Source of the DNA: an uncultured Acidobacteriota bacterium
Lineage (GTDB): Bacteria > Actinomycetota > Acidimicrobiia > Spongiisociales > ZC4RG35
Direction of reading: 5' to 3'
Assembly: GCA_963789135.1 (NCBI GenBank)
Contig: CAWBJJ010000002.1
Coordinates: 87,736 to 151,735 of the forward strand
Length of the DNA stretch: 64,000 nucleotides
Below, piece by piece: positions 15,752 through 57,637 of this stretch. The position numbers and the translations under genes were made by a program. The number at the start of each line of letters is the position of its first letter. Within the stretch, counting starts at the first letter, position 1. The notes beneath the pieces were generated by a model. That model was not told the DNA's origin, did not search any database, and saw only the letters and a list, made by a program, of their open reading frames with translations.

Positions 15752-16867
15752 GTGCTGAAGGTCACCTCTGCCCAGGCGCTGTCTTGGCGGATGAAGCGAC
15801 ACTTTCTCGACCCTCTCGGCAAGCCCAGCATCGACCAGGTGGTGGATCGCCTGTGCGGGGTTCAGGCCCAGGTGGCGTCATCGGCCGAGCTCGCGATCCG
15901 GATTCGCCGACAGAAGTCGCGCTCAGGGGACGTCGGGAGCGCCCTCTCTTCGGGCCGCCTGATCAAGACCTGGGCGATGCGAGGGACACTTCACCTGCTC
16001 ACTCCCGAGCGCGCTCCAGCTTTCCTCTCCTTGATCGCCTCCGGTCGATCTTGGGAGCGCCCGAGCTGGCAAAAGTACTTCGGGGTGTCACCGTCACAGA
16101 TCGAGGCGTTGCGCAAGGCGGCGAGGTCGGCGTTGAAGGACGGGCCATTGACCCGTGAGGAGCTGATCGCCGCGGTCACACGGGTGCGCGGCCTGCGACA
16201 CGTGGGTGAAGCTCTCGGTTCCGGTTGGGGCACCCTGCTCAAGCCACTTGCCTGGCAGGGCGATCTGGTATTCGGTCCCAGTCGGGGCAATCGCGTCACG
16301 TTTACTCTCCCCGAGGTTGCGAGCCCGAGATGGCCGGGCATGCCGGAGCCGGATGAAGCCGCGCCGGAGGCGATCCTCAGCTACCTCGGAGCACACGGGC
16401 CGGCCACGGCCGACGCCTTCGGAAACTGGCTGGCCGGCGGATGGTTCGGCAAGCGCCGGCTCAATGCCTGGTTTGCCGATCTGGGTGACGCTCTGGCCGA
16501 GGTCGAGGTCGACGGCCATACAGCTTTCGTGCCCACCGCCTTGCTGGACGACCTTGCGACTACGAAGCCGACCAAGGCGCTCCGGCTCTTGGGCGGGTTC
16601 GACCAGTACGTCTTGGCGCCGGGCACCGGGGACGCCCGGGTGGTGGCGGTCGAGCGGCGCCCTCTGGTGAGCAAGCAGAGCGGGTGGATCTCGCCAGTCG
16701 TAGTGTCGGGTGGCGTGGTCTCCGGCACCTGGGAGACCAAAGACGACCACATCGTGGTCTCCTGGTTCAAGGAGAGACGACTATCCCGGCGGCTCCTCGA
16801 GGACGACGTGCGACGCCTTGGGTCGATCCTGGCGCGTCCCTTGGGCCTCGAGGTCGAGCGGGTCTAA
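15752..16867 (+). CDS. winged-helix DNA-binding protein of the HTH_42 / AlkZ-YcaQ (crosslink-repair DNA glycosylase) family
   Basis: 371 aa. The N-terminus ...AQALSWRMKRHFL...VVDRLCGVQAQVASSAELAIRIR resembles this family. Confidence 0.6.
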   Translation: MLKVTSAQALSWRMKRHFLDPLGKPSIDQVVDRLCGVQAQVASSAELAIRIRRQKSRSGDVGSALSSGRLIKTWAMRGTLHLLTPERAPAFLSLIASGRSWERPSWQKYFGVSPSQIEALRKAARSALKDGPLTREELIAAVTRVRGLRHVGEALGSGWGTLLKPLAWQGDLVFGPSRGNRVTFTLPEVASPRWPGMPEPDEAAPEAILSYLGAHGPATADAFGNWLAGGWFGKRRLNAWFADLGDALAEVEVDGHTAFVPTALLDDLATTKPTKALRLLGGFDQYVLAPGTGDARVVAVERRPLVSKQSGWISPVVVSGGVVSGTWETKDDHIVVSWFKERRLSRRLLEDDVRRLGSILARPLGLEVERV

Positions 16868-16886
16868 CGGTCGGCCGGCGCCCTAT

Positions 16887-18023
16887 TCAGTCCGAGCTGT
16901 TCCTGATCCAGACCGAGAGCTTCGTTGGCTGCACCGTCGCGACGACCACGCCGATCCAGCCCTGGACGATGCGATCGGTGTCCATCTCGTCCTGAACGGA
17001 TCTGGCGAACTCCGCGCCAACTCGTACCGCGTCGTAATGGGATCGATTGAATCGCCGGTCGACGACTCGTTGCACATTGCGGCGGACCGGGTTGAACAAC
17101 GCGGCAACAGCCAAAGTGGATGCCGCGACTCGTATTTCGCTGCCCGGCGGGAGCAGTGAAGTCAGCACGGTCACGACCAGGCCAAACACAGCTGCCAGGA
17201 GCGCGACCACTACCGAGTACGACACAGTTCGGGAGACGATGCGATCAATCTCGAAAAGCCGATAGCGGAGGATCGCGATCCCGAACCAGAGCGGAAAGGT
17301 GATCATCATCACGAAAACCGGGCCCCAGGCCGCATCCCCGGGGTCACCGGCACCGAGCGCGATCGATCCGAAGATGTAGGCGAAGGTCATGATGATGGCG
17401 CTCACCAGCAGGACGAAACCGAACACCACCCACGTGATCTGGGCCCGTTCCGCTCCGACTGCGCGGCGTCGCTTCACCACCAACGAGACCACACCGCCCA
17501 GCAGGATGGCTACCACGGTCATGAGCAGGGGAAACGAAAGCCAGCCGGGAAGGAACCCAATCGAGTTCTCGATGCCCGACTCCGAAACCGGGCCGCCGAG
17601 GGTCTCAGTGAGTGCGGTTGCGACCACGAGCAGCGGTAGCACACGGATTGCCAGTCGTCCGGAGCGGGCGGCCAGGCTTGGGCCTTTTGGCGGGTGCCCG
17701 GAGGGAAACGTCAGCGTCAGGATCCCGAACACGGCGAAGACCGCGGTCCAGATCCAGCTGCCGACCCAGTCGGCGAAGTTGTCGGGTGTCCCCGGGAAAT
17801 AGGGGGAGGCATCGGCGAACACCAGGAGCAGCCCGATCACGGACAGGAGCCATCCGGTCAGATGGCCATCGCGGCGGAAGACGATCATGCCCCCGGTAAC
17901 TGCATAGATCCCAAAGCCGAGGCCGGCCAGAAAGACGTCGGCGGCGGGTATTGCCCCCGCTAGCTGGACCCAAAGCAGCAGGGCGCCGGTGATGCAGATC
18001 AGGCCGAAAGCGAATCGCCGCAC
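16887..18023 (-). CDS. polytopic membrane sensor-module protein, sixth (dispersed) paralog of the 47.5-53.1 kb array (P0)
   Basis: 378 aa and multi-TM. It shares RRDGHLTGW, RRRAVGAERAQITW, LRYRLFEIDRIVSRTVSY, FNPVRRNVQRVVDRRFNRSHYDA and the tail ...VQPTKLSVWIR with P1-P5. No output domain. Confidence 0.8.
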   Translation of the reverse strand: MRRFAFGLICITGALLLWVQLAGAIPAADVFLAGLGFGIYAVTGGMIVFRRDGHLTGWLLSVIGLLLVFADASPYFPGTPDNFADWVGSWIWTAVFAVFGILTLTFPSGHPPKGPSLAARSGRLAIRVLPLLVVATALTETLGGPVSESGIENSIGFLPGWLSFPLLMTVVAILLGGVVSLVVKRRRAVGAERAQITWVVFGFVLLVSAIIMTFAYIFGSIALGAGDPGDAAWGPVFVMMITFPLWFGIAILRYRLFEIDRIVSRTVSYSVVVALLAAVFGLVVTVLTSLLPPGSEIRVAASTLAVAALFNPVRRNVQRVVDRRFNRSHYDAVRVGAEFARSVQDEMDTDRIVQGWIGVVVATVQPTKLSVWIRNSSD

Positions 18024-18083
18024 TTCCGGATTGTTGCAAACGGCGCGCTACGAAATCGTTACCGCTCCTAGCCTGACCGCGGC

Positions 18084-42819: not shown

Positions 42820-43968
42820 TCAGACCTCGACGGTGATCTTGATCTCGGTCCCGGCCTCGTGGTTGGAGTCGATGTCCACGACCCCGCCGACACTCTCCAC
42901 TCTCTTGGCGAGGCGCTCGTGAACCCGGGTTCGCATCCCGTCGTCGACGAATCCCGATCCCCGATCCCGGACGTGGATGTGGGCATCACCGTTGCTGAAC
43001 TCTGAATAGAGGGCGATGTTGGGAGACCCGGAGTGTTTGGCAGCGTTGGCCAGGGCCTCGCGGGCTGCCTCGATTGCGGCGGCGAGGCTCGGGCTGAGCT
43101 GTGCGTCGTCGCGGATCACTGCTTCGATCTCAACGCGATGTGTGTCCTCGATTTCGTCACGCACCGCCAACAGAGACGCCCGGAAGCTGTTGGGAAATTC
43201 CGAGCGCCATTCTTCGATGTTGCGCCGAAGCTCCCGCTCCTGGCGGCGAGCCAGGTACCTCGACTGGGCCGGGTCGTCGGCGCCCATCCGGATCGCGTGG
43301 AGCGTCTGCAGCACCGAGTCGTGGAGCCGGTCGGCGAGCACCGCCCGCTGCTCGTGCAGCAGAACAACCGCCTGCTCTTCGGCGAGCCGGGCCTGGGCCT
43401 CCTGACGAGCCAAGTCGTAGTCGCGAAGCTTGTCGAATGTCCAACCAACGATCGCGCCGACCACGAAGAAGATCACGCTGCCTGCGGCCCGTACCGCCCC
43501 GAGGTCTGCGATCACGTGGACCAGGAACTGCTCCACTCCGAGCGCCAGGGCAGCTATCAGTGATCCCGGCAGCCCGCCCACCAGGGCGCCGGTGAAGACC
43601 AGGGAGAGGGGCAGGCCACCGTGGAACAGCTCCTCGGCACCGGAGGCGATCGAGGCCGCGCCGATGGCGAGCATGGCGATGGTGTCTAGGAAGAACCAGC
43701 CAACGGTGGACATCGCCTTGGGATGGGCCGCTGCCATGTACCAGGTGAGCAGAGTCCAGACCACGGCTAGGACCACCGAGGCGTAGACGATCCACATCGT
43801 CGGTGGGGGATCCACGGCGATGGTGATCGCGACGAGGATCAGCATCCAGATCAGTCCGAGGAACCGGAAGATCACCACCATGCGGCGCAGGGTGTTCTCC
43901 AGTTCGGCGCTGCCGCGTTTGTTGAAGCTGGCGGCGATCATCGGGTTCGAAGCTAGCGATTCGGACAT
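42820..43968 (-). CDS. membrane sensor histidine kinase, HisKA_3 (NarX/DesK-like) type
   Basis: 382 aa with about 5 N-terminal TM helices. The H-box is DRLHDSVLQTLHAI and the C-terminus is an HATPase_c domain (NAAKHSG...VRDRGSGF). Confidence 0.8.
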   Translation of the reverse strand: MSESLASNPMIAASFNKRGSAELENTLRRMVVIFRFLGLIWMLILVAITIAVDPPPTMWIVYASVVLAVVWTLLTWYMAAAHPKAMSTVGWFFLDTIAMLAIGAASIASGAEELFHGGLPLSLVFTGALVGGLPGSLIAALALGVEQFLVHVIADLGAVRAAGSVIFFVVGAIVGWTFDKLRDYDLARQEAQARLAEEQAVVLLHEQRAVLADRLHDSVLQTLHAIRMGADDPAQSRYLARRQERELRRNIEEWRSEFPNSFRASLLAVRDEIEDTHRVEIEAVIRDDAQLSPSLAAAIEAAREALANAAKHSGSPNIALYSEFSNGDAHIHVRDRGSGFVDDGMRTRVHERLAKRVESVGGVVDIDSNHEAGTEIKITVEV

Positions 43969-44568: not shown

Positions 44569-47304
44569 CTACCAGCGGCTGAGCAGCCAAACCTCGGGTT
44601 GCCAGTCACCGGTGCCGATCCCGGAGAAGAGGGTTACCGCCTTGGTCAGTTCGAGATTGGCTTCATCGTCACGCCCCGCCCGGTGGTGGATGTCCGCGAG
44701 ATGGTTGTGCAGGGCGGCCTCCCGATGGCGATTGCCGGTCCGCTCTGCGATGACAACGGCCTCGGTCACCATCCTCGCCGCCGAGTCGAGGTCGCCAGAC
44801 TCGGCCAGGAGGTGGGCCCGATTGTTGAGCCCCGCAAGTCGGAGCAGGTCGTCGTCGCCGGCTAGTTCCAGAGCCCTGTCGAGGTGTTGGGCCGCGCTTG
44901 CCGGATCCGCGGCAGACGACTCCGATGATGTTGTGGACCCGGGAGAGTTGAGCCGGCTCGGCATCGGCCCCCAACAGCTCCATCGACTTCGATGCCAATT
45001 CGTCGGCGCCCGCCGACGTCCCCGAGCCGGTGCCTGAGCAGGGCCCAGTCGGCATACAGGTCATAAGCGTGATTGGCGTCGGCCGACCTCGAGAAATGTT
45101 CCTCGGCCAACTCGAACTTGCCCAGCAGTCTTTGCACCTCGCCGAGCCGATGCTCCGCGACCGCGAGCAGCGGACCGTCTGCCCTCGCCGCCGCAATGCT
45201 GAGCTCGGTCAGCGCCTCGTCGTAGTCACCGACCACCATCGCCACTTCACCGAGGGCGAGATGGATCGATGCCGGGTCGTCGTGTCCCAATCCGAGAGCC
45301 TTGCGGTACATCTCTCGGGCCTCGGCGTGGGCGTAGACCTGGCGGGCCAGGTCACCGGCACGCCGATACCAGTCGGCCGCGGACTCGGAGCCGGCTCCCT
45401 CGTGCTGGGCCGCGATCGCGGCGACCAGCCGCGGATCGGAACCGGCCCCCGGCCGTTGTGCGAGCGCCGAGGCAGCGCGTCGATGGAGCAAGCGGCGCCT
45501 GGTCAGCGAAGTCGACTCGTACGCCAGACGCTCCAGTGCCTCCAGGGTGAAGCGAAGGCCATCGCCTTCGGCAACTTCATGGAGAAGGCCCGCAGCCACC
45601 AATTCCTCGACAGCGTCGACGACCTCCTCCTCGGTGCGGCCACTGGTCTCTCTGAGAAGCCCGGAGTCGCAGGAGCCATCGAGCACCGCGGCCGCCGTGA
45701 CCACCTGGCGGCCGAGATCACTCAGGTCCCGCAGCCTCGCCTCCATGTAGCGGACCATGCCCTTGGCTTCGATGCCGACCCCTGCCAAGTCATCGGTCAC
45801 CAGCAGGGGGATCCCACCGGTGCGCTGATGGAGGTCGATCGCGGCTTCCCGGGACCCGGCGGCTGACATCAACTGATCGACCGTCAACGGCTCCAGCTCG
45901 ATTCGGTGGCCGACACTGCTCACGAGACCTTCGATGACAGCGGACACCGGATCTCCTGACCGAATCGCTGCCACCAGCAGAAGGCTCGTCTGGTCGACGC
46001 GCACGAGCCAGATATGAGATCAGTCCCGCCGAGGCCGGGTCCAGCCACTGCGCATCGTCGATCATCAGGACCATCGGCTTCGCCTTCGAAAGCTCTCGCA
46101 GCAGTGTGAAAGCGCCATCGAAGAGCCGCAGCTCACCGAAAGGGTCGGTCAACTCCTGCGTCGGCTGCTGGCGGTTGATCTCCGGGACCAGCCTCCCCAC
46201 CTCGACGATGCGCCCACGCCGAGAGCCGCTCTCGTTCCGCTTCGATCAGATCGCGGGCCGGCGCGGAGCAATTGGGTCGCGACACCGAAGGGAAGGCTTT
46301 GTTCCATGCGGATAGGCCCGTCCGATGAGTGTCGAGTAGCCCGGCGTCGGCCCGCGACAGCCTCGAGTTCCTCGAGCAAACGGGTCTTCCCCATCCACGG
46401 AGGGCCGGTGATCGAGACTGTCTCGCCACCATTGCCAAGCCGGTCCAACGCGGACCCCAGCAGTCCAAGCTCGTCGACGCGGTCGATGAGGTCGCTGCTC
46501 TCCGGAGCCGACGGCGGGCTGCGCCCGGACTCGCTTCCTCGTCCCCGGCGCCGGCGGCAGGTCCTCGTCGAGGATCGCCTCGTAGAGCTCGGTTGTCTCC
46601 TCGAGCGGCGGGACTCCGAGCTCCTGATCGAGCACCGCGGTGCAGCGGCGGTATGCCTCGACGGCTCCGGGCCGATCTCCCGCCCAGGCGTTGAGGAGCA
46701 TCAGCGAGCGATGGGCAGGCTCGTGTAGCTGGTCGAGGTCGATCCACCGAGCCACTGCGTCGATGGCTGCCTGGTAGTCACCTTCGGCTGCCAGCGCCGT
46801 CGCCAGACCGGTCGAAGGCCTCGCCGACCCTGATCCGGGTCGACTCGGCGACACTCCTCGCCCAGTCGTCGAACTCTGCCGAGGCCTGGACGGAGAAGCC
46901 TGCAAGGAAGTCGCCCCGGAAGAGCTCGACGGCTCGGGACAGATGGGGAATGCAGCGGGTGCAAACGTCATGAGGGTCGTGGCCGTGTCGGTCGTCGCCT
47001 TCAACTCGCGGGTCGAAGAGATCGATGTCGGAGGTGACGTCACCGACCAGCGTCACCATGGTTGCGGTCGGCCTCGATCAGGTCACTGCCAGCGGCACCG
47101 CGCAGCGTCGACAGGGTGCGACGCAAGCGTCGCCCGGGCCCGGTCCTGTGGTGAGTCCGCCCACAAGAGACCGGCCAGGGTGTCCCTGGTCGCCGACCGT
47201 TCCACGACCAGGTAGGCGAGTAGCGGCGATCGCCTTGCGGGTGTCCACCTCGACGGGTGCCGTTGGCGAGACACGCGGGGGCCGAGCAGTTCCACGTTGA
47301 GCAT
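44569..47304 (-). pseudogene. SARP/AfsR-like regulator (winged-helix + BTAD + AAA/NB-ARC-like ATPase + TPR), heavily frameshifted
   Basis: Family-typical segments sit in at least nine different frame blocks. They include MLNVELLGP, PVEVDTRKAIAA, LLAYLVVERSATRDTLAGLLWADSPQDRARATL, RRTLSTLRGAAGSDLIEADRN and VTLVGDVTSDIDLF...LFRGDFLAGF. Further blocks are ...YQAAIDAVARWIDLDQLHEPAHRSLMLLNAWAGDRPGAVEAYRRCTAVLDQELGVPPLEETTELYEAI, VSITGPPWMGKTRLLEEL (Walker A), PMVLMIDDAQWLD (Walker B), a long helical/TPR region, and a C-terminal TPR block. Confidence 0.75.
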
Positions 47305-47558
47305 GTTGGTGTCGGGGGCGGAGGTGAAGATAGACCCGCGTTACGAGATATGACCGATCGCTGCTCCCGGAACGCGAGCGAGTCTCCGTTTCACTTACGT
47401 AACGGTTCGATACCAATCTCCCTACCATGAGGGAATCGGTGGGTGGGGTCGAGAGGCGCGGTGTCCGCGGCCGCATTGGCTGTTGTCGGTCTTGAGCCTT
47501 GTGCTGTTCGGCAGCTTTTCTGCGGGTGGCGTGGTCGGCTGGTGGCCAGTGCAGACGG

Positions 47559-48620
47559 ATGTCGACGTCTTTCGTGAACCTGGGAATGATGCTTCTCTTC
47601 CTCGTCCTCGGCCCCATGATCTTGTGGAAGGCCAACGGAAATCGGGTGGGTTGGGCCTTCTCCGCCATCGGTCTTTTTCTCCTGTGTGCGGCCATTGCCG
47701 GAGGAATGGCAGACCGGGGGATGCTGGTTGGAGGTGCGATCGGCGGGGCGTTCTGGCTCTCTTGGATCATCGGCCTGGGGCTTCTCGTCCTCTGGTTCCC
47801 TACCGGTCAGGTACCGACGCCGCGGTGGAGGTGGCTCGAGTGGCTCGGCTTCTCTCTCGTGGCCATGACCTTCATCACCTACACCTTTGCCGATCAGCTC
47901 TGTGTCGAATCCGACGGGGCGTGCTTGGAATGGGTGGACAATCCGATCGGTATACCGGGGATGCCCAACCCCGAATACGGATGGCTCTCAATTCCGCTGT
48001 TTTCCCTCTACCCGGTCTTCATGGGAGCGGTCGTTTTCTCTCTGTTCCTCCGGTTCCGCCGTGCGCGGTCTGTGGAGAGGCTGCAGCTGAAGTGGTTCCT
48101 CTTCGCCTGTGGCTCCGCGGTCGTCGCCCTAATCACGGAGTTCGTCTTCGAGAGTGTGGGGATCGGCGAGCCGCCCTGGTGGTTGGACGCATGGATCAGT
48201 CTCTCCTTCCTGGCAATACCGATCGCCGCCACCCTCGCCATTCTCCGCTATCGGCTGTATGAGATCGATCGGATCATCTCTCGCACGGTCTCCTATGCCC
48301 TGGTGGTGGCGCTGCTGGCAGCGGTGTATCTGGGAGCCCTGACCTGGCTCACCACCCTGCTCCCTGACCAGTCCCAGTTGGTGGTCGCCGCTGCCACCCT
48401 TGGAGTTGCCTTCCTGTTCAACCCGCTACGGCGTCGGGTGCAATCTGCGGTCGATCGCCGTTTCAACCGATCGCGATATGACTCCCAGCGAGTGATGGAT
48501 GGCTTCGCCGAGTCGCTGCGTGATGAGGTGGACAGCGATCAGGTGATGAGCGGCTGGGTAGGCGTTGTCGCCGAGACCATGCAACCGTCCTCGGTCGCGG
48601 TCTGGGTCAGGGACCGATGA
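47559..48620 (+). CDS. polytopic membrane sensor-module protein, array paralog P1
   Basis: Shares KANGNRVGW, FRRARSVERLQLKW, LRYRLYEIDRIISRTVSY, FNPLRRRVQSAVDRRFNRSRYDSQRVMDGFAESL and the tail ETMQPSSVAVWVRDR. An additional TM-like segment (LSLVLFGSFSAGGVVGWW) lies upstream in another frame from 47483/47492, so the 5' end may be frameshifted or truncated. Confidence 0.75.
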   Translation: MSTSFVNLGMMLLFLVLGPMILWKANGNRVGWAFSAIGLFLLCAAIAGGMADRGMLVGGAIGGAFWLSWIIGLGLLVLWFPTGQVPTPRWRWLEWLGFSLVAMTFITYTFADQLCVESDGACLEWVDNPIGIPGMPNPEYGWLSIPLFSLYPVFMGAVVFSLFLRFRRARSVERLQLKWFLFACGSAVVALITEFVFESVGIGEPPWWLDAWISLSFLAIPIAATLAILRYRLYEIDRIISRTVSYALVVALLAAVYLGALTWLTTLLPDQSQLVVAAATLGVAFLFNPLRRRVQSAVDRRFNRSRYDSQRVMDGFAESLRDEVDSDQVMSGWVGVVAETMQPSSVAVWVRDR

Positions 48621-49741
48621 TCCGGCGGCTCCTCCTGATCCCTCGCACTGATCGTCTCGGTTGGTGGGATCGTCGCTGCGGCCATGAGCCCGGCACTGGC
48701 GGGCGGTGATGCGATGTGGCCGGTCGCGTGGTTGCCCTGGGCGCCCGTCGGCTATTTGATACTGCTCAAACGCCCCGGAAACAACGTAGGTTCGGCCTTG
48801 CTTACCATTGGGCTCTCGTGGGGTGCCGGCTTCCTGTGTCTGGCCCTCGCCAATCGGGTCACCTCTCCGGTTGCGGGAGCTTGGATCGAGTTGACCAACT
48901 CGATCTTCGGTGTCCTTCCCTGGATGGGGATCGTTTGGCTGCTTCTCATCTTCCCCAGTGGGCGTCTCGAGGGGCGGGCCGAGAGGGTCATTGCCACGCT
49001 CGTGGCGCTGGCCACCTTCGTCATGGTGACCGCGTTCGCGGTGAGCTCGGTGCCCATGGAAGAGACTGGGCTCACCAGCCCGTTGGCGGTGCCCGCTCTG
49101 GCGACCATCGCGGCAGCACTCGTCGAGGACAGCTCCTTCTTCGCCGTGATTGTCCTTGCCGCAGCGGCGCTCGTTGTCACGCTTCGCCGCTGGTTCCGGA
49201 GCAGTGGCGTCGAGCGCCTTCAGTACCGGTGGCTGATCCTGGGGGCAACGGCGTATGTGGTGATCGCGGTCGCCGGACAGCTGATGCCTGATGACAGCCC
49301 TTTCGATTTTCTCTGGCTGGCAGGGGGCTGGCGATTCCGATCTCGATCGGGATCGCCATCCTCCGATATCGCCTCTACGAGATCGACAGGATCATCTCCC
49401 GCTCCGTCACTTACGCAATGGTGGTGGGGCTGCTGGCGGTGGTGTACATGGGGGCCCTCACCTGGCTCACGACCCTGCTCCCTGACCAATCCCAACTGGT
49501 GGTCGCCGCAGTCACCCTGGGAGTGGCCTTCTTGTTCAACCCGTGCGACGGAAAGTCCAGGCAGGCGTCGACCACCGGTTCAATCGGTCCCGCTACGACG
49601 CGCAACGGGTGATGGATGGGTTCGCCGAGCTCACTGCGGGACCAGGTCGACGGGAGGGACATGATGACCGGCTGGGTGGGGGTGGTCTCGGAGACCATGC
49701 AACCGTCCTCGGTCGGGGTCTGGGTCAGGGAGAGCGCTTGA
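48617..49741 (+). pseudogene. array paralog P2, three to four frameshifts
   Basis: The ATG at 48617 overlaps the P1 stop (ATGA). Segments run MIRRLLLI / LALIVSVGG...KRPGNNVGS...RRWFRSSGVERLQYRW...FLWLAGG. They continue AIPISIGIAILRYRLYEIDRIISRSVTYAMVV...FLFNP / RRKVQAGVDHRFNRSRYDAQRVMDGFAE / LRDQVDGRDMMTGWVGVVSETMQPSSVGVWVRESA. Shifts lie near 48640(?), 49325, 49548 and 49632. Confidence 0.75.
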
Positions 49742-50835
49742 GCATTCGCCCCAGACTCTTGCTGGTCGGCGCGGTGGGCTCGTACACCATCGCCACCCTG
49801 TTGGTTGGACTGTTCAGGGATGGGATGACCGGGGGAGGTTTCGTGTTCGCCGTGGGGAGCCTGGCCTTCTACTCGGTCGCCGCGGTGCTGGTGATGAAGG
49901 TCCCGGATAACCGGCTCTCGTGGCTTCTGATCCTCGTGTCCTTCGGCCTCGCCGTGCTGGGTCACCTGGACGGGAGCCCGGAAGGCTCTCTGCGGGAAGT
50001 GGTGGGCGGTCTTGCCTTGTTCGCGGTCGTCCTCCCCGGCATCGGTGTCTTCATCCCGCTCTGGTTCCCTACCGGCACGAGTCCCACTCCCCGCTGGCGT
50101 TGGGTGGGGTGGATGGCCTCTCTAGGTGTGCTCGGCATCGTGCTCGGGTTCACCTTGGTCGTTTATGTCGACGGAGGCGGAAGCGACATCAATTCCTGTG
50201 CCTCGGTTGGGTCCTGTTCCAGCATCGTTGGCCTGATTCTGACTCTCGGATCAATTGTCGGCGGCATCGCAGCTCTGATCATCCGCTGGATCCGTTCCGA
50301 GGGAGTGGAGCGACTGCAGATGAAATGGCTGGTGCTTGCTTTCGTGGTGTTCGGGATCGGGGCTTACGCCGAGTTCGGGGGCTTCCAGTATTCCGTTGTC
50401 GCCAACGTCTTCTTTCCCGCCGGGGTCGCCCTGATCCCGATCTCGATCGGGACCGCCTTGCTCCGCTACCGCTTGTACGAGATCGATCGGATCCTGTCCA
50501 GGACGGTGTCTTACACGATGGTCGTCGCTCTGCTCGCCGGCGTCTTCTTCGGTGCCGTGACCTTGCTCACCTCGATTCTCTCCACGGAAAGCGACTTGGT
50601 CACCGCGGCCGCCACGCTATTGGTGGCCGGCATGTTCAATCCGATGCGAAAGCGGATCCAAGGGTGGGTCGACCGCCGCTTCAACCGGTCGCGGTACGAC
50701 GCGCAGCGGGTGATGGACGGGTTTGCCGACTCATTGCGGGACGGGGCGGACGGCATCGAGGTGACCCAGGGCTGGATCGAAGTGGTTTCCGAGACCATGC
50801 AGCCATCGGCGGTCGGCATCTGGGTGAGATCTTGA
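49738..50835 (+). CDS. array paralog P3
   Basis: The TTG start overlaps the P2 stop (TTGA). Carries KVPDNRLSW, IRWIRSEGVERLQMKW, LRYRLYEIDRILSRTVSY, FNPMRKRIQGWVDRRFNRSRYDAQRVMDGFADSL and the tail ETMQPSAVGIWVRS. Exact start codon not proven. Confidence 0.75.
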   Translation: MSIRPRLLLVGAVGSYTIATLLVGLFRDGMTGGGFVFAVGSLAFYSVAAVLVMKVPDNRLSWLLILVSFGLAVLGHLDGSPEGSLREVVGGLALFAVVLPGIGVFIPLWFPTGTSPTPRWRWVGWMASLGVLGIVLGFTLVVYVDGGGSDINSCASVGSCSSIVGLILTLGSIVGGIAALIIRWIRSEGVERLQMKWLVLAFVVFGIGAYAEFGGFQYSVVANVFFPAGVALIPISIGTALLRYRLYEIDRILSRTVSYTMVVALLAGVFFGAVTLLTSILSTESDLVTAAATLLVAGMFNPMRKRIQGWVDRRFNRSRYDAQRVMDGFADSLRDGADGIEVTQGWIEVVSETMQPSAVGIWVRS

Positions 50836-51881
50836 GCCGAGCTGCGGCCGCGATCGTCGTGGTGGGAATCCTTGTCGGGGCGGGTCTGACAGCTGTTGCA
50901 GAGGTGTCGTTTGCGGTCGTGATCCTGGCATTCGGCGCCACCGGCCTGATCATGGCGCTACGAGTCCCAGGAAACGTGATCGGGCGCGTCTTCCTGATGG
51001 CAACTGCCTGTTGGGCAGTGGCCGGGTCGGCCGAGCTCCTGTTCGTCGAGCCCCTCAGCTCGGTGGTTTTCACAATGACTTTCTTTCCCGGCCTGGCGCT
51101 TGCGGTTGTCGCTCTGTTGGCGTTGTTCCCCTCCGGGCGAGTTCTTTCGTCCGGCTGGCGTTGGTTGATCTGGGCGGCAGTGGCATTCGGAGCCATGGGC
51201 GGCCTGGGCAACCTGCTGGTGGAGATCGACGTCGGACGAACAGCGGGCGAACTGATGGTCGGCCTTGCCGGGATTTCGCTGATAGCCGGAGTCGGTGGGG
51301 GCATCGCGTCTCTCGTGATCCGATACCGGAGAGGCAGTGATGTCGAGCGCCAACAGTTGAAGTGGTTCCTGGTGGCCTCATTCGCCGTCCCTGTTTCGCT
51401 GATCGCGGGGGAGCTCTTCATCGATCACCCCTACCTCCAGAGCGTCATCGTCTCGGCCGGTTTGATTCCACTTCCCGTCGCGGTCGCCATAGCCGTCCTT
51501 CGCTATCGGCTTTATGAAATCGACCGGATCCTCTCGCGCACCGTGTCCTACACCCTGGTCGTGGGCTCCCTGGCCGCGGTGTTCTTCGGGACGGTGACCT
51601 TGCTCACGTCGATTCTCTCCACTTCCAGCGATCTGGTGACTGCGGCGGCCACCCTTCTCGTGGCAGGACTCTTCAACCCGGTGCGTCGAAGGGTCCAGGC
51701 ATGGGTGGACCGTCGATTCAACCGCTCCCGATACGACGCGCAGATGGTGATGGATCAGTTCTCTGAGTCGCTACGCGACATGGTGGATCCAAACGCCGTT
51801 GTTAGAGGATGGCTTGGAGTGGTGTCGGAGACCATGCAACCAGTGGCCATGACGGTGTGGGTGTCGGAGACCAGAGCATGA
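50832..51881 (+). CDS. array paralog P4
   Basis: The TTG start overlaps the P3 stop (TTGA). Carries RVPGNVIGR, IRYRRGSDVERQQLKW, LRYRLYEIDRILSRTVSY, FNPVRRRVQAWVDRRFNRSRYDAQMVMDQFSESL and the tail ETMQPVAMTVWVSETRA. The ORF-track entry 49920..51881 is longer only because the frame stays open across P3. Confidence 0.75.
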   Translation: MSRAAAAIVVVGILVGAGLTAVAEVSFAVVILAFGATGLIMALRVPGNVIGRVFLMATACWAVAGSAELLFVEPLSSVVFTMTFFPGLALAVVALLALFPSGRVLSSGWRWLIWAAVAFGAMGGLGNLLVEIDVGRTAGELMVGLAGISLIAGVGGGIASLVIRYRRGSDVERQQLKWFLVASFAVPVSLIAGELFIDHPYLQSVIVSAGLIPLPVAVAIAVLRYRLYEIDRILSRTVSYTLVVGSLAAVFFGTVTLLTSILSTSSDLVTAAATLLVAGLFNPVRRRVQAWVDRRFNRSRYDAQMVMDQFSESLRDMVDPNAVVRGWLGVVSETMQPVAMTVWVSETRA

Positions 51882-53110
51882 CCCGGCGACGGGCCACGTT
51901 CCTGAGTTGGTCGATGTGGGTGCTGGGGGTCGCCGCGATGGTCGCGGGCGCGGTGATCACGAGTCGCAACCCGGCAATTCTGACCACGGAACCCGAGGAG
52001 AGTCTGCTCGAGAACTTGATCTGGCTTTCGTCGTTCGTCGGTTTTGGCTTGGTCGGCGCCTTGGTCGTCTCCAAGCGCCCCTCCAACAGAATCGGCTGGA
52101 TTCTCTCCGGGATCACCCTCTCGGTCGGAGTCATGGTGTTGGCCCCGGCGTACGCCCGGTATGCGTTGGTGACGGCACCAGGGACAATTCCATTGGGACA
52201 CTTGGCGGCCTGGGTTTCGACCTGGGCGGTGGTAGTGCCGGCGACTCTCGCTATCGCCCTCGTCCTTCTCTACCCGGCCGGGTCGATCACGACCAGGACA
52301 GGGAGAGTCGTCCTGTTCCTGCTTCTATCTCTGGCGGCCCTGGACGTAGTCGCATTCGCATTACGGCCGGGCCCGGTCGAGGGAGACACCCCGCCCATGA
52401 ATCCCCTCGGCATCTCTGGTGCAGACGGGGTCCTGAACTCGGTCATTTCCACGAGCGGGTCGCTGATGGCCCTACTCCTCGTTATCGGGGTCGTCGATCT
52501 GTTTGTTCGCTTCCGTAAGTCCTCCGGCGTGGAACGCCTGCAGTTTCGATGGTTCCTCCTGTCCTTCGCCGCGTTCCCGGTCCTCTTCCTGCTTTCGACC
52601 TTCCTCGAGGAGGAAGTCATCGGGGTTGGAGGATTCGACCCGACATTGATCGTGTTTCCACTTTGGGGGCTCGGAACCGCCACTGCCCTGGCAGTCGCCA
52701 TCACCCGTCATGGCCTTTACGAGATCAATCGCATCGTTTCCCGCACCGTCACCTACACCCTGGTGGTGGGCGCTCTGGCTGCAGTGTTCTTCGTCGCGGT
52801 CACCGCCCTGACCGCCCTGCTCGACGCGGAGAGCGATGTGGTCGTCGCTGGCTCGACGTTGGCTGTAGCAGCCCTTTTCACCCCGGTGCGCCGGAGAGTT
52901 CAGGGCTGGGTCGATCGCCGCTTCAACCGCTCCCGGTACAACGCTCAGACCGTGATGGACGGGTTCGCAGACACGCTCCGGAACGAAGTCGACCCGGCGG
53001 AGGTAGCCGAAGGCTGGGTATCGGTGGTGTCATCGACGATGAAGCCCAAGGTCGTCGGAGTTTGGATAAGCCAGGAATCCCGTAACGATTTCGGGACGGT
53101 CGGAGGATAG
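51878..53110 (+). CDS. array paralog P5
   Basis: The ATG overlaps the P4 stop (ATGA). Carries KRPSNRIGW, VRFRKSSGVERLQFRW, TRHGLYEINRIVSRTVTY, FTPVRRRVQGWVDRRFNRSRYNAQTVMDGFADTL and the tail STMKPKVVGVWISQ.... It is the most divergent array member. Confidence 0.8.
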   Translation: MTRRRATFLSWSMWVLGVAAMVAGAVITSRNPAILTTEPEESLLENLIWLSSFVGFGLVGALVVSKRPSNRIGWILSGITLSVGVMVLAPAYARYALVTAPGTIPLGHLAAWVSTWAVVVPATLAIALVLLYPAGSITTRTGRVVLFLLLSLAALDVVAFALRPGPVEGDTPPMNPLGISGADGVLNSVISTSGSLMALLLVIGVVDLFVRFRKSSGVERLQFRWFLLSFAAFPVLFLLSTFLEEEVIGVGGFDPTLIVFPLWGLGTATALAVAITRHGLYEINRIVSRTVTYTLVVGALAAVFFVAVTALTALLDAESDVVVAGSTLAVAALFTPVRRRVQGWVDRRFNRSRYNAQTVMDGFADTLRNEVDPAEVAEGWVSVVSSTMKPKVVGVWISQESRNDFGTVGG

Positions 53111-53121
53111 AAAGCACACAT

Positions 53122-54714
53122 ATGGTTCAACTGATGAGACGTCGCAAGACGGAAGAGGAAGAGGCGACGGCCAGCCCGGTCCCTGCCGAGCCCAACAGCC
53201 GGCTCATCGACGCGGTACCGATCCCTCCAGGCGACCCGCTCGAGACCGTCCTGCTCTCGCATGGAGGGCCTCTCGAGCTGGCTTCGTTGGAGCTGGAGTC
53301 GGAGACTCTCGAGTCCATCAAGGAGCAAGGTGTTGAGTTGGTCGTGCCCCTCATCGGCCAGGGTGAGCTGCTCGGCGCCCTCTACCTCGGTGCCAGGCTC
53401 TCCGACCAGCCATATTCGACCGACGACCGAAGGCTCCTCGGCAGCCTGGCGTCCCAGGTGGCACCGGCGATGAAGGTTGCCCAACTGGTCCGAGAGCAAC
53501 AGGCCGAGGCCAAGGAACGCCAGCGGATCCAACAGGAGATGCAGGTCGCCGCGCTGATCCAGCAGACCCTTCTTCCCCGCGATCTGCCCTCCATCTCGGG
53601 GTGGGGCATCGATGCCTTCTACCGCCCTGCTCGGGCGGTTGGTGGCGACTTCTACGACTTCATCCATCTCGACGACGGCCGGCTCGGCGTCGTGATCGGG
53701 GACGTGACCGACAAGGGTGTGCCCGCGGCACTCGTAATGGCGACCTGCCGTTCGATGTTGCGCTCGGCCGCCCACAACCACCGCGATCCGGGCTTGGTGC
53801 TCGCCGAGGTCAACGATGCCCTGGTATCCGAGATACCGCCCGCGATGTTCGTCACCTGTCTTTACGCGATCGTTGACACCCACAGCGGGGACGTGATCTT
53901 CGCCAACGCGGGGCACAACCTGCCGTATGTCCGCGATGACTCAGGTGTCGTCGAGCTGCGCGCCACGGGGATGCCCTTGGGCCTGATGCCCGGGATGACA
54001 TATGACGAGCACAAGCACCGGCTCGCAGCGGGCGATGTGATGGTTCTGACCAGCGACGGGATCACCGAGGCCCACGACCCGGACGGCGAGATGTACGGCT
54101 TCCCCAGGCTCATGGGAAGAGTTGCCGTCAAGCCCCAGGACGGTGACGTTGTCTCGGCTCTCGTCGGAGACCTCGAGAAGTTCACCGGACCTGACGCCGA
54201 GCAGGAAGACGACATAACCCTGGTCGTCGTGAAGCGCACCGCCTACGCCCAGGACAGTGCAGGAGCGTTCGACGACCTGTCCACCACCACTCTGCTCGAC
54301 AGTTTCAGCGTTGCCAGCGAAGAAGGCAACGAGCGTGCCGCGATCGAACAGGTGGCGGCTGCCGTCGCTGATCTGGCCCTGGAACCGGCCCAACTCGAGC
54401 GCCTGAAGACGGCGGTCGGAGAGACAGTGATGAATGCCATCGAGCACGGGAACGAGAACCGGCCCGAGTTGATGGTGGACGTGGCAGTCATGGCCACGGA
54501 TCACGCGATCAAGGTGAGGGTCACCGATCACGGCGGCGGGAAGCCGATCCCCGACGTGGTCACGCCGGACATCGATGCCAAGCTGGCCGGCGAGCAGACA
54601 CCACGTGGGTGGGGACTCTTCCTGATCGGCCAGATGGTCGACGAAGTCCGCACCGAGAGCGTCGATGGGACCCACACAGTGGAGCTCGTCATGAACAGAA
54701 AGGGCCAGGGCTGA
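53122..54714 (+). CDS. soluble SpoIIE/PP2C-type phosphatase fused to an RsbW-like HATPase_c (anti-sigma kinase) domain, with a short GAF-like N-terminal segment
   Basis: 530 aa with no TM helix. The GAF-C-terminal-like segment is VELVVPLIGQGELLGALYLGARLSDQPYSTDDRRLLGSLASQVAPAMKVAQL. The PP2C/SpoIIE motifs are AVGGDFYDF, GDVTDKGVPAAL and LTSDGITEA. The HATPase segment is GETVMNAIEHGN...VRVTDHGGG...GWGLFLI. A GGAGGA RBS overlaps the P5 3' end. Confidence 0.8.
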   Translation: MVQLMRRRKTEEEEATASPVPAEPNSRLIDAVPIPPGDPLETVLLSHGGPLELASLELESETLESIKEQGVELVVPLIGQGELLGALYLGARLSDQPYSTDDRRLLGSLASQVAPAMKVAQLVREQQAEAKERQRIQQEMQVAALIQQTLLPRDLPSISGWGIDAFYRPARAVGGDFYDFIHLDDGRLGVVIGDVTDKGVPAALVMATCRSMLRSAAHNHRDPGLVLAEVNDALVSEIPPAMFVTCLYAIVDTHSGDVIFANAGHNLPYVRDDSGVVELRATGMPLGLMPGMTYDEHKHRLAAGDVMVLTSDGITEAHDPDGEMYGFPRLMGRVAVKPQDGDVVSALVGDLEKFTGPDAEQEDDITLVVVKRTAYAQDSAGAFDDLSTTTLLDSFSVASEEGNERAAIEQVAAAVADLALEPAQLERLKTAVGETVMNAIEHGNENRPELMVDVAVMATDHAIKVRVTDHGGGKPIPDVVTPDIDAKLAGEQTPRGWGLFLIGQMVDEVRTESVDGTHTVELVMNRKGQG

Positions 54715-55055
54715 TGCCAGAGGATGCCTTCGAGGTCGAAGTGGTGGAGAGAGACGACGGACATGTCATCGAACTCCGGGGCACGGTGAACCGGGCGGCC
54801 AAAGAAGCCATGGAGGCGGCCTATGAGGGCACGGGCTCGGGCCGGGTCCTGCTCGACTTCACCCGCGTCGACTACATCAACTCAACCGGTATCGCGGTGA
54901 TCGTTGGCCTGTTGGCAATGGCCAGGGCCGAGGATCGCCAGGTGGGCGCCTTCGGGCTGACCGATCACTATCGCGAGGTGTTCCAAATCACCCGCCTTGC
55001 CGACTTCATGACCATTTACGACGACGAGTCCGCCGCGGTGACGGCGGGGATTTGA
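54714..55055 (+). CDS. STAS-domain protein (anti-sigma-factor antagonist family) 1
   Basis: 113 aa. LLDFTRVDYINSTGIAVIVGLL carries the conserved Ser/Thr position. The ATG overlaps the upstream TGA (TGATG). Confidence 0.75.
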   Translation: MPEDAFEVEVVERDDGHVIELRGTVNRAAKEAMEAAYEGTGSGRVLLDFTRVDYINSTGIAVIVGLLAMARAEDRQVGAFGLTDHYREVFQITRLADFMTIYDDESAAVTAGI

Positions 55056-55067
55056 GGAGAGGGAATC

Positions 55068-55418
55068 GTGCCTACTGCCAACCTGACGATGACAGTCCGT
55101 GAACTGAGCGAATCGGTCCGTGTGATCGACATCGAAGGCGAGATCACATCTTTTTCGGAGCCGGAGATCTCGGCTGCCCACGAGAAGGCCGCCGCCGGCG
55201 GGGTCGATGCCGTGATCCTCAACTTCGAGGGGCTGCAGTACATGAACAGTGGCGGGATCGGGATCCTGGTCACCACCCTGATCCGGGCCCAGCGCTCGGG
55301 CCACCGCTTACTGGCGTTCGGCCTCACCGACCACTACCGCCAGATCTTTGCCCTGACCAGGCTCGACGAGGCCATCGAGATCTTCGACGACGAAGCGTCG
55401 GCAGTCGCCGCCACCTGA
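55068..55418 (+). CDS. STAS-domain protein (anti-sigma-factor antagonist family) 2
   Basis: 116 aa. ILNFEGLQYMNSGGIGILVTTL carries the conserved Ser. GTG start preceded by GAGGAGAGGG. Confidence 0.75.
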   Translation: MPTANLTMTVRELSESVRVIDIEGEITSFSEPEISAAHEKAAAGGVDAVILNFEGLQYMNSGGIGILVTTLIRAQRSGHRLLAFGLTDHYRQIFALTRLDEAIEIFDDEASAVAAT

Positions 55419-55424
55419 GGCGGA

Positions 55425-56819
55425 TCAGCCGCTGAGCGCGGCGCGGGCGGCGTAGAAGCCGCACATCCCATGAACCCCGGCGCCGGGTGGGGTGGCTGAC
55501 GAGCAGAGATAGAGGCCGTCACCGATCCGGTAAGGCCCGGTGGCCCCCAATTGGAACACCTTGCGGGGCCCGAAGCCACCACCGGCGATGTCGCCCCCTA
55601 TGTAGTTGGGGTTGTGAGCCTCGAAACCCCCGGCGTCGAGTGTGTTCCGGCCGATCACCAGATCCTTGAACCCGGGGGCGAAGCGCTCGATCTGGGATTC
55701 GATGGCATCGGTCATGTCGACTGTTGAGCCGTTCGGGACGTGGGTGTAGGCCCAGGCTGTGTGTTTGCCCTCGGGAGCCCGGCTCGGGTCGAAGACCGAA
55801 GGTTGGGAGAGGAGGACGAACGGGCGCTCGGGATGGCCTCCGCGGTGGACCGTGTCCTCGGCTGCCATCACCTCCTCCCAGGTGCCGCCAATGTGCACCG
55901 TCCCCGCGTCAGGGCTGGTCCCGTCCTGCCACGGGATTGGCGCGTTCAGCGCCCAGTCCACCTTGAACACCGCGGGCCCGCTCTTCCATGCCGCGAACTT
56001 GCGCCGGTGACGCATGTCGACCCTGGTCCCGGCGATGCGGACGGCCGAGCGGGGCATTACATCCAGGATGACGATCGGGGTCTCCGGAAGGTCGGCCAGC
56101 GACGAGACCGAACGGCCGGTCTCGATGTTCCCACCCCCATCCGTCACCACCTTGGCGAGGGCGTCCGCCACTCGCTGCGAGCCTCCGGCGACCAGCGGCC
56201 AACCGTAGGCGTGGCCGGTTAGGCCGAAGAGAAGAGCCACACCGCCGGTCAACGGTGAGTTGAACGGGGCAATGGCGTGTCCGGCCAGGCCGGCGAAGAC
56301 GGCACGTGCCTCCTGCGACGAGAAACCGGAAGCAATGGTGGAGGCCGGGAGAGCACCCCTGGTGGCAAGCCTTATGAAGCTCGAGGGGTTCTTGGGTATC
56401 GGCGACATCGGGCCCAGGTAGTCCTCGATGACCTGGTCCGCCGAGTCGACAAGGGGCCGCATGATCCGCCGATAGCGGTCGGCGTCAGGACCAAAACCTC
56501 TGGCCGTTTGCTCGAGGTCTCGCCAGAGGGCACCAGAGCGGTCGCCGCCGAGCGGGTGAGATAGCGGCAGGCCCGGCTGTATCCACTCCAGGTCCAGCCC
56601 GATGTCCCTGAAGAAGGGGGAGGCGACTCCCAGGGGGTGGATTGCCGAGCAGACGTCGTGGAGGAAGCCGGGAAGGGTCAGCGATTCGGTCCGGGTCCCA
56701 CCGCCGATCATCGGCCCCTGCTCCACCACCAGTGCCTTCCGCCCGGCGCGGGTCATTTCGGCCGCGGCAGCCAGGCCGTTGGGGCCGGCGCCCACCACCA
56801 CCACGTCGTATTCGGGCAT
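55425..56819 (-). CDS. NAD(P)/FAD-dependent oxidoreductase of the phytoene-desaturase (CrtI-like) family
   Basis: The start is placed at MPEYDVVVVGAGPNGLAAA (Rossmann GxGxxG). The ORF-track extension to 57194 is Arg/Pro-rich and overlaps the divergent neighbour. Confidence 0.75.
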   Translation of the reverse strand: MPEYDVVVVGAGPNGLAAAAEMTRAGRKALVVEQGPMIGGGTRTESLTLPGFLHDVCSAIHPLGVASPFFRDIGLDLEWIQPGLPLSHPLGGDRSGALWRDLEQTARGFGPDADRYRRIMRPLVDSADQVIEDYLGPMSPIPKNPSSFIRLATRGALPASTIASGFSSQEARAVFAGLAGHAIAPFNSPLTGGVALLFGLTGHAYGWPLVAGGSQRVADALAKVVTDGGGNIETGRSVSSLADLPETPIVILDVMPRSAVRIAGTRVDMRHRRKFAAWKSGPAVFKVDWALNAPIPWQDGTSPDAGTVHIGGTWEEVMAAEDTVHRGGHPERPFVLLSQPSVFDPSRAPEGKHTAWAYTHVPNGSTVDMTDAIESQIERFAPGFKDLVIGRNTLDAGGFEAHNPNYIGGDIAGGGFGPRKVFQLGATGPYRIGDGLYLCSSATPPGAGVHGMCGFYAARAALSG

Positions 56820-56926
56820 TGGAGTCGATTGTGGCGCGGTCGCGTTACGAAATGGTGATCGGGATCCACAGGAGCCGGCCGATTCCCCGTAACGGTGGCG
56901 GAACGCTTCGATGGTCTGCTGTGGCC

Positions 56927-57637
56927 ATGGAGAAAGGACCCGAATTGACCGAACCGACCAACGCAGAGAACTGGGCAAAGCCGGTCGACGCCTTTCACGT
57001 CGGCGAGGTGGCCGAGGGGGCGCACAAGGGGAATGTCGAGGGCCGGCGCCCCACAGGTCCGCTCCAGGGCTTCGGCCAGCTCTGGCAGAAATGGTACGAG
57101 GTGGGCGTTCCCGGGCCCACTCCCGAGGAATTGATCGCAACCTGGAAGGCCAACTTCGGGGAGTTCTGGTACCCGACCAACAAGTTCTACGCACCTGCAG
57201 GCGGCATCAGCCCCGGTGAGATCGCGGTCATCGGCGGCGGCAAAGGCCCGACCAAGGTCACTTCTGGCGTCCGGGTCATCTACGCCGACGATCGGTCTTG
57301 GTCCTATATGACCCCGGAAGGCCACCCCTGGGCGGCGATCATCACCTTCAGCGCATATGAGGACGACCAAGACGTGACCCGGGCGCGGATCCACCTCCTG
57401 GTCCGGGCCAACGACCCTCTGTATGAAGCGAGCTTCAAGGCTTACACCTCCCGCCTCGAGGACAAGATGTGGAAGTACACGCTGGGCCAGGTGGCGGAGC
57501 ATTACGACGTAGCGGAGCCCGAGGTGACCATGGAAACCACCCTGGTCGACAAGCGGCGGCAATGGGATCAGATGGGCAACATCTGGAAGAACTCGGCGAT
57601 CAGGACCCTGCTACGCCAGGACCGAAAAATCGGCTGA
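56927..57637 (+). CDS. hypothetical soluble protein
   Basis: 236 aa from the ATG at 56927 (MEKGPELTEP...). The composition looks well-behaved. No family recognised. Confidence 0.55.
   Translation: MEKGPELTEPTNAENWAKPVDAFHVGEVAEGAHKGNVEGRRPTGPLQGFGQLWQKWYEVGVPGPTPEELIATWKANFGEFWYPTNKFYAPAGGISPGEIAVIGGGKGPTKVTSGVRVIYADDRSWSYMTPEGHPWAAIITFSAYEDDQDVTRARIHLLVRANDPLYEASFKAYTSRLEDKMWKYTLGQVAEHYDVAEPEVTMETTLVDKRRQWDQMGNIWKNSAIRTLLRQDRKIG

Follow-up and report, generated by a model that had tools for sequence, protein, structure and literature searches.

Control through the linker has been proposed for the GAF-, PAS- and RsbU-N-linked PP2C phosphatases, and Rv1364c of Mycobacterium tuberculosis has been discussed as a phosphatase of the general stress response whose linker is a coiled coil (PMC12143880). 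Here, we present a locus in which domains of these kinds are distributed over separate genes. It is located in a 64,000-nucleotide (nt) stretch from an uncultured bacterium placed in the Acidimicrobiia (GenBank assembly GCA_963789135.1, contig CAWBJJ010000002.1, positions 87,736 to 151,735), which we call the window throughout, and it consists of five consecutive genes for related membrane proteins, P1 to P5, followed by one gene for a soluble phosphatase-kinase and two genes for STAS proteins. Comparison with single-chain homologues indicates that this arrangement very probably represents a gene that was split within its GAF domain and of which the N-terminal piece was amplified. The parts are of known kinds (GAF-PP2C, RsbW-like kinase, STAS), and the split-and-amplified sensor is new; a full-text literature search yielded no description of the operon or the P family, nor of a GAF domain that is naturally split.

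With Rv1364c (PAS/RsbU-like PP2C/RsbW-like kinase/STAS; PDB 3ke6) the phosphatase-kinase of the window shares the combination of PP2C and RsbW-like kinase in one chain and, according to our proposal, the action on STAS domains. However, Rv1364c is a cytoplasmic protein with a PAS sensor and a fused STAS domain, whereas the window has a split GAF domain, a multiplied membrane part and separately encoded STAS proteins, and Pfam searches returned no PAS match in the phosphatase-kinase. The order of GAF, long helix and PP2C is that of the GAF-PP2C phosphatases, such as RsbZ of Clostridioides difficile and OsaC of Streptomyces coelicolor (PMC12143880). In phosphatases of the RsbZ/OsaC type the GAF domain is complete and belongs to the same chain, whereas in the window it is split over two genes. 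We know of no multiplied membrane partner of these phosphatases; the state of the sensor is likely relayed through the linker to the phosphatase switch in the same way as in them. A design principle is shared with the RsbT/RsbU pathway and the stressosome of Bacillus subtilis, where several RsbR paralogues feed a single PP2C phosphatase, which in turn controls a STAS antagonist. There, the phosphatase is switched on by a separate protein that binds to its N-terminal region and linker (PMC12143880). The window has neither an RsbT-like kinase nor an RsbR/RsbS scaffold, and the coupling would consist in the completion of a split domain instead of a released activator. The same transmembrane (TM) module, motifs, GAF and PP2C domains as in the window, in some cases together with the kinase, occur in the single-chain proteins P0256, P0274, P0346, P0382 and P0389; in these uncharacterised metagenomic proteins, to which the link is one of homology only, one gene provides one sensor and one output. 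Finally, the P proteins resemble HisKA_7TM (PF16927), the N-terminal seven-TM region of histidine kinases, in being a polytopic membrane sensor region.

The evidence for the fission lies at the junction between the two proteins. The Pfam GAF match of the phosphatase-kinase (PF01590/PF13185) covers profile positions 41-132 only, and the tail of the P proteins, which is composed of a long helix, a short helix and one beta-strand (...ETMQPxxVxVWVR), corresponds to the first third of the domain, of which the phosphatase-kinase carries the remaining two thirds. The tail alone had no Pfam GAF match, and when it was prepended to the phosphatase, the start of the match moved from profile position 41-50 to 11-22. 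We searched 1.84 billion representative proteins exhaustively with a junction-centred query composed of the last 36 residues of P4 and residues 24-135 of the phosphatase. This query was spanned in single alignments by P0256, P0274, P0346, P0301, P0264, P0348, P0369, P0380, P0382, P0389 and others; in P0256 (758 amino acids (aa)) query positions 10-147 aligned to residues 369-508, and in P0274 (748 aa) query positions 1-147 aligned to residues 355-506. Fusions accounted for about 20 of the top 150 matches. Their N-terminal 300-430 residues match the hidden Markov model (HMM) of the P family with up to 249 bits, and they contain a complete GAF domain (profile positions 1/3-133) and SpoIIE according to Pfam; P0389 additionally possesses HATPase_c_2, and the C-terminus of P0382 is a matching kinase region as read by eye. 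The P0256 junction reads ...TMQPTSFSLWLQ-PLGPDAEPAG-IQIPPGDPL..., and that of the window reads ...TMQPVAMTVWVS, followed by a stop, a gap, a start, about 30 residues and ...AVPIPPGDPL. In the alignment, the stop, the gap and the start of the window are replaced in the fused proteins by a loop of roughly 10-24 residues. By this collinearity, the P genes and the phosphatase-kinase gene correspond to a protein that is encoded as one chain in an ancestral or alternative form. When a longer chimera of the tail, GAF and the beginning of PP2C was used in a word-indexed search, only phosphatase orthologues of about 529 aa were returned, and no fusions.

The cut falls in a short loop just past the first GAF strand. 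In the GAF fold, the first strand is an inner strand of the sheet, against which the first helix is packed, and a GAF domain that lacks both should not be stable alone. The position of the cut is the strongest argument that both pieces must work together. In the AlphaFold2 models, residues 1-38 of the phosphatase are of low confidence despite an invariant IPxGDPLE, and the final 15 residues of P4 (MQPVAMTVWVSETRA) are unstructured, as might be expected in both cases of segments that become ordered on a partner. The N-terminal region of the phosphatase is 75-94% identical over more than 100 homologues, and this conservation, like the two model features, is consistent with an incomplete GAF domain that would be unstable by itself. 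The initial annotation, made from the sequence alone, had proposed that an input module was detached from its PP2C output and amplified, with several modules serving one output; the fused homologues, the split operon conserved in other genomes and its variable copy number all point the same way, and homologues with a P-like N-terminus fused to GAF-PP2C, some with HATPase_c_2, do exist. It had missed, however, that the cut lies inside the GAF domain. As side observations, the gene of P0389 has a STAS gene directly 3' and is without a P array, and P0241, P0245, P0253 and others are giant proteins of 1200-3950 aa in which 6-19 repeats match the C-terminal part of GAF (query positions 80-147), forming arrays of related GAF-like repeats.

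Regarding the output proteins, the phosphatase-kinase begins with a disordered basic/acidic N-terminus, followed by the C-terminal two thirds of GAF, a long linker helix (residues 172-222 in the model), PP2C and an RsbW-like HATPase_c_2 domain. The Pfam match to SpoIIE covers profile positions 1-191 with an E value of 7.2e-52, HATPase_c_2 was matched at 7.6e-19 and the NCBIfam model spIIAB at 1.1e-14. The motifs GGDFYD, GDVTDKG, TSDG and EDDIT, which we take to be those of PP2C catalysis, are all present, as are the N and G boxes of the kinase (NAIEHG, DHGGG, RGWGL). In Foldseek searches, the best structural match of the model was 3ke6_B, the RsbU and RsbW domains of Rv1364c (E 1.6e-20), and the SpoIIAB entries 1l0o and 1th8 were matched as well. 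Both STAS proteins have a serine in the N-S-x-G position (YINSTG in STAS protein 1 and YMNSGG in STAS protein 2), which by eye we judge to be equivalent to Ser58 of SpoIIAA. The description of this part as a SpoIIE/HATPase_c fusion with two STAS genes was correct in the initial annotation, which overlooked the partial GAF domain.

The P proteins have about ten TM helices and very short outside loops, according to hydropathy and an AlphaFold2 model of P4. This model (mean predicted local distance difference test score (pLDDT) 84.6, and >90 through the bundle) has ten TM helices, the last of which extends as a long cytoplasmic helix to residue 317 and is followed by a further helix at 320-334. 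The conserved basic motifs, KxPxN after TM2, FPSGR after TM4, RxRxxGVERLQxKW after TM6 and LRYRLYEIDRI after TM8, all lie on one face, which is taken to be cytoplasmic by the positive-inside rule. The ordered motifs reported earlier are common to all six copies in the window, as the alignment confirmed. Neither a Pfam or NCBIfam family nor any output domain was matched by the copies in the window, in agreement with the initial annotation, and a Foldseek comparison of the P4 model with the PDB returned generic 7-TM bundles only (best E 0.07, TM-score about 0.35-0.4). HisKA_7TM had no match in P1, P3, P4 or P5 at E 0.1 or better, and weak matches in 11 of 109 P-family members (best 1.2e-6).

The two ends of the P proteins differ in their conservation. 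In the array, the N-terminal halves are only about 23% identical between copies, compared with 61-66% for the C-terminal module, which bears out the strong N-terminal divergence noted initially. Between paralogues within a genome, identities are about 23% for the TM bundles, 63-78% for TM9-10 and 61-83% for the tails; between orthologues across genomes they are 44-69% for the bundle and 48-82% for the tail. The bundle is hence conserved between orthologues only, whereas the tail is equally conserved between paralogues and orthologues and is held nearly constant across all copies. Each copy has a clear orthologue in other genomes, and the order of these orthologues varies among genomes. High identity of the bundles between orthologues and low identity between paralogues indicate that the paralogues are old and individually maintained. 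The P copy directly adjoining the phosphatase gene carries a C-terminal RND(F/S)xT extension in loci of Acidimicrobiia, Kribbella and Solirubrobacteraceae, in the form of RNDFGTxxG in the Acidimicrobiia and RNDSRT in the other two, and a related RNVFRT is found in P3 of the Aeromicrobium locus L077. Carriers of the extension include P5 (53066-53110 in the window), P8 of L003, P5 of L055 and P7 of L072.

The split operon is conserved in other genomes. Loci L001-L005 have a divergent BTAD regulator gene, six or eight P genes, a gene of about 529 aa with weak GAF, SpoIIE and HATPase_c_2, two STAS genes and a convergent FAD oxidoreductase gene. A scan with the phosphatase protein, restricted to one genome per species, yielded 80 loci from Acidimicrobiia, Thermoleophilia, Nocardioidaceae, five cultured Kribbella and one member of the Caldilineaceae (Chloroflexota). 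About 75 of 85 loci have one to eight or more P genes upstream on the same strand (within a 10-kb flank), documenting synteny across classes, and in these about 75 loci the P module always ends at the end of its own open reading frame (ORF). In some loci, the P genes are on the opposite strand or none is nearby. The start codon overlaps the TGA stop (NTGA) at 173 of 189 internal P-P junctions (92%). Of 83 loci, 65 have two STAS genes 3' of the phosphatase gene, and 17 have a single one.

Among the candidates scored, more than 3600 proteins are related to P4. Almost all of them are stand-alone proteins of 340-400 aa, and many stem from Acidimicrobiia metagenome-assembled genomes with consecutive locus tags. 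A search with the C-terminal module of a fused protein returned stand-alone, domain-less proteins of 210-350 aa only, mostly from Chloroflexota. The stand-alone form is commoner than the fused form, and the earlier statement that the module is normally fused did not hold: thousands of homologues of 210-400 aa stand alone, compared with about 20 fusions among the top 150 matches. The fusions to histidine kinases that had also been expected did not appear either; no HisKA/HATPase_c fusion was among the matches listed, with one search aimed at such fusions, and all that was found in this direction was the weak HisKA_7TM resemblance mentioned above. P0391-P0510 include many short proteins of Chloroflexota (Ktedonobacterales, Anaerolineae) that have TM9-10 and the tail module and no other domain; many are on short contigs, and some may therefore be truncated.

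The features of the locus in the window are compiled in Table 1.

Table 1 Features of the P-phosphatase locus in the window (positions are those of the 64,000-nt stretch)
Feature	Position	Strand	Description
P6	16887-18023	-	Solitary sixth paralogue, tail complete; ORF and translation; 30 kb from the array
Regulator	44572-47304	-	BTAD/AAA_16/TPR (AfsR/SARP-like); divergent, upstream of the array, frameshifted
P1	47559-48620	+	Intact ORF; polytopic membrane protein, conserved C-terminal module and GAF-N tail
P2	48617-49741	+	Disrupted paralogue
P3	49738-50835	+	Intact ORF; TTGA overlap, about 10 TM, GAF-N tail
P4	50832-51881	+	Intact ORF; about 10 TM, GAF-N tail
P5	51878-53110	+	Intact ORF; copy proximal to the phosphatase gene, extra C-terminal RNDFGTVGG
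Phosphatase-kinase	53122-54714	+	Soluble, 530 aa; partial GAF, PP2C (SpoIIE), HATPase_c_2
STAS protein 1	54714-55055	+	113 aa, anti-sigma-factor antagonist type; Pfam STAS 3.6e-10, NCBIfam ant_ant_sig
STAS protein 2	55068-55418	+	116 aa; Pfam STAS 1.1e-13

From 47559 to 55418, every gene is on the plus strand, and the sequence confirmed the 4-nt overlaps noted at the P-P junctions (ATGA, TTGA, TTGA and ATGA, in order). The gap between P5 and the phosphatase-kinase gene is 11 nt, a Shine-Dalgarno-like GGAGGA is contained in the last P5 codons (GGA GGA TAG), 12 nt ahead of the phosphatase start codon, and the start of the gene for STAS protein 1 overlaps the phosphatase stop by 1 nt (TGATG). A promoter and terminator scan returned nothing that exceeded the shuffled expectation. 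By alignment, P1, for which hydropathy predicts about 9 TM helices, has orthologues in L003 (P1, 65% identity) and L001 (P1, 55%), P3 in L003 (P5, 58%) and L001 (P4, 55%), and intact orthologues of P2 are present in L001 (P3, 58%) and L003 (P6, 57%). In the public gene call, P4 starts at GTG 50859. P6, which the initial annotation had missed, is 58% identical to P9 of L003, a gene that directly follows the STAS genes in that locus (16857-18053); in the window it adjoins an AlkZ-like DNA glycosylase gene (15752-16867).

Of the five paralogues listed in the initial annotation, P1, P3, P4 and P5 are intact ORFs; P2 is not open and needs three to four frame switches. In three-frame translation, the frame opened by the ATG at 48617 (the ATGA overlap) stops after 30 codons, and the readable protein begins in frame 0 at about 48640, or at an alternative ATG at 48684 (63 nt past P1), changes to frame 2 near 49320, to frame 1 near 49543 and back to frame 2 near 49630, and reaches the stop at 49741 in this last frame. 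A further switch near 48640 is needed if the start at 48617 is kept. In the P1/P2 DNA alignment, one nucleotide is deleted and, about 90 nt away, one is inserted, and a GGGGG run near 49322 lies beside one of the frameshifts. The upstream regulator gene, found at the same position in L001-L005, is also broken, which the initial annotation had missed: in tblastn searches, the intact orthologues of 892-913 aa from L001 and L003 match collinear pieces in frames -2, -3, -1, -2, -3, -1 and -2, that is about seven pieces and about six frameshifts, with BTAD and TPR found by Pfam on the fragments. Long intact ORFs, the longest of 819 codons, are numerous in the remainder of the window; the damage is therefore local, and it reflects either true gene decay to pseudogenes or local assembly indels. 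L003, L004 and L005 are near-identical contigs from sister samples; compared with the other two, L005 has two shortened P genes and a phosphatase broken into pieces of 467 and 77 aa, which shows that indel errors occur in assemblies of this type.

Several neighbouring genes are shared with other loci. The gene at 42823-43938 on the minus strand encodes a conserved protein of 372 aa that is 87% identical to its counterpart in L001 and has a weak C-terminal HATPase_c match; as the L001 counterpart is followed by a Response_reg/GerE regulator gene, the product is possibly the small histidine kinase of a two-component pair. On the other side, the convergent gene for a FAD-dependent (phytoene-desaturase-like) oxidoreductase (55425-57194, minus strand) and the gene for a 229-aa protein without a family match (56942-57637, plus strand) are both syntenic with the operon in L001-L005.

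For the function of the locus, we favor the view, as the reasonably probable one, that the P tail completes the GAF domain in trans and by this means tethers and controls one partner-switching phosphatase-kinase. The tail would add its helices and its strand to the incomplete GAF domain of the phosphatase-kinase, completing the fold and holding the enzyme at the membrane, and the state of the TM bundle of the bound P protein would pass via the helical linker to the PP2C domain, a transmission that is modelled on other GAF-PP2C phosphatases. Because the TM bundles are very different (about 23% identity) and the tails nearly the same, the paralogues may be regarded as alternative or competing inputs to one output, with five to eight distinct bundles presenting the same tail. 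The output would be the phosphorylation state of the two STAS proteins, which the fused kinase would phosphorylate and the phosphatase would dephosphorylate; the target of the partner switch might be a sigma factor, although none is encoded in the window. All membrane halves would thus probably plug into the single back half, so that one switch listens to several sensors. More tentatively, and with somewhat less than even confidence, the split GAF domain can be pictured as a plug and socket, each P protein carrying the plug and the one soluble phosphatase-kinase the socket, from which alternative sensor-output complexes would be assembled after translation, possibly including mixed dimers that integrate two membrane inputs.

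Part of the evidence would also suit a simpler role of the P tails. They might only tether or sequester the phosphatase-kinase, holding it at the membrane in an active or inactive state with no signal transmitted, while regulation would come from a ligand of the GAF remnant, from P abundance or from the SRPBCC protein of other lineages. Such tethering has the fission evidence (fused homologues and junction alignment) in common with GAF completion, and it would be in line with the very short outside loops of the P proteins, which offer no obvious ligand-binding input domain, as well as with the extra gene of about 150 aa, SRPBCC/START-like by eye, that precedes the phosphatase gene in many loci. 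We nevertheless regard it as rather unlikely, given that the bundles are kept as distinct orthologous lineages (44-69% identity versus 23%), from which it appears that each bundle has its own selected function and is not an interchangeable anchor. That the P proteins belong to no Pfam or NCBIfam family and have no solved structural relative, that solitary copies such as P6 occur away from the operon and that P genes are on the other strand or absent nearby in some loci could also mean that these proteins act independently, for instance in transport or in the envelope, in which case the GAF-like tail would be vestigial and the phosphatase neighbourhood historical. This is improbable, as the tail is the most conserved part in all copies including P6, whereas a vestige would decay first; moreover, synteny and start/stop overlaps are conserved across classes, and the fused homologues tie the P module to GAF-PP2C.

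Two further explanations concern the repeated DNA itself. The array contains five 3' modules of about 400 nt that are spaced 1037-1205 nt apart and share 61-81% DNA identity, with P1 and P2 reaching 87% over 438 columns, and these modules might serve as recombination cassettes through which P genes are shuffled, deleted and duplicated, so that the sensor beside, or fused to, the phosphatase varies in the population. The variation of copy number (1-8 or more) and gene order between genomes would agree with this, and in L001 the tails are more alike within the genome (83%) than between orthologues, hinting at some gene conversion. However, the locus contains neither inverted repeats nor a recombinase, each copy has retained a stop and an overlapping start of its own, and the identities are too low for frequent exchange; furthermore, the 3' module has no counterpart in the phosphatase gene, and recombination therefore cannot create fusions. 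Cassette function is accordingly very improbable. The frameshifts in P2 and the upstream regulator and the broken genes of the sister assembly L005 raise the question of whether the tandem copies themselves result from a mis-assembled repeat. This has a negligible probability: the N-terminal halves are only 23% identical, each copy has a distinct orthologue in other genomes, and the array recurs in dozens of independent assemblies, complete genomes of cultured Kribbella among them. An identity of 61-81% between the modules is also far below the near-identity of an assembly duplication, which rules out a collapsed or expanded repeat; for the array as a whole, the artefact that had been named as a possible refutation is refuted by divergence, orthologues and independent assemblies.

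Completion of the GAF domain in trans has to be weighed against several results that do not favor it. Prepending the tail raised the Pfam GAF score by only about 2 bits, and the junction-spanning profile alignments to PDB entries were not significant (E 0.36). In an AlphaFold2 model of a chimera of the P4 tail and the phosphatase-kinase, the tail remained undocked at a pLDDT of about 50 and formed no strand; the underlying alignment was unpaired and had depth for the phosphatase part only, with almost none for the tail. A gene of about 150-180 aa separates the last P gene from the phosphatase gene in many loci of Thermoleophilia and Nocardioidaceae and in some of the Acidimicrobiia (for example L033 9403-9855, L065 9382-9831 and L016 9403-9942; there is none in the window), and tight adjacency of P and phosphatase genes is therefore not universal; where a clean ORF could be read, the product looks SRPBCC/START-like by eye. 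Finally, neither a sigma factor nor another candidate for the switched target was found among the scanned operon neighbours, and the gene for the target may lie elsewhere.

If the tails complete the GAF domain in trans, the locus would show protein-fragment complementation at work in natural signal wiring, and many inputs could be integrated into one output without additional kinases or scaffolds. As the system is present in cultured Kribbella, for example at about 2.562-2.584 Mb of NZ_CP108783.1 (Kribbella sp. NBC_00889, locus L058), it is directly testable. Should the plug-and-socket arrangement be true, the fragment complementation of a sensor domain would be a widespread and unrecognised natural signalling strategy in Actinomycetota and Chloroflexota, and completion of the GAF domain in trans would provide a function for a family of thousands of membrane proteins that lack annotation, from soil and sediment members of these two phyla.

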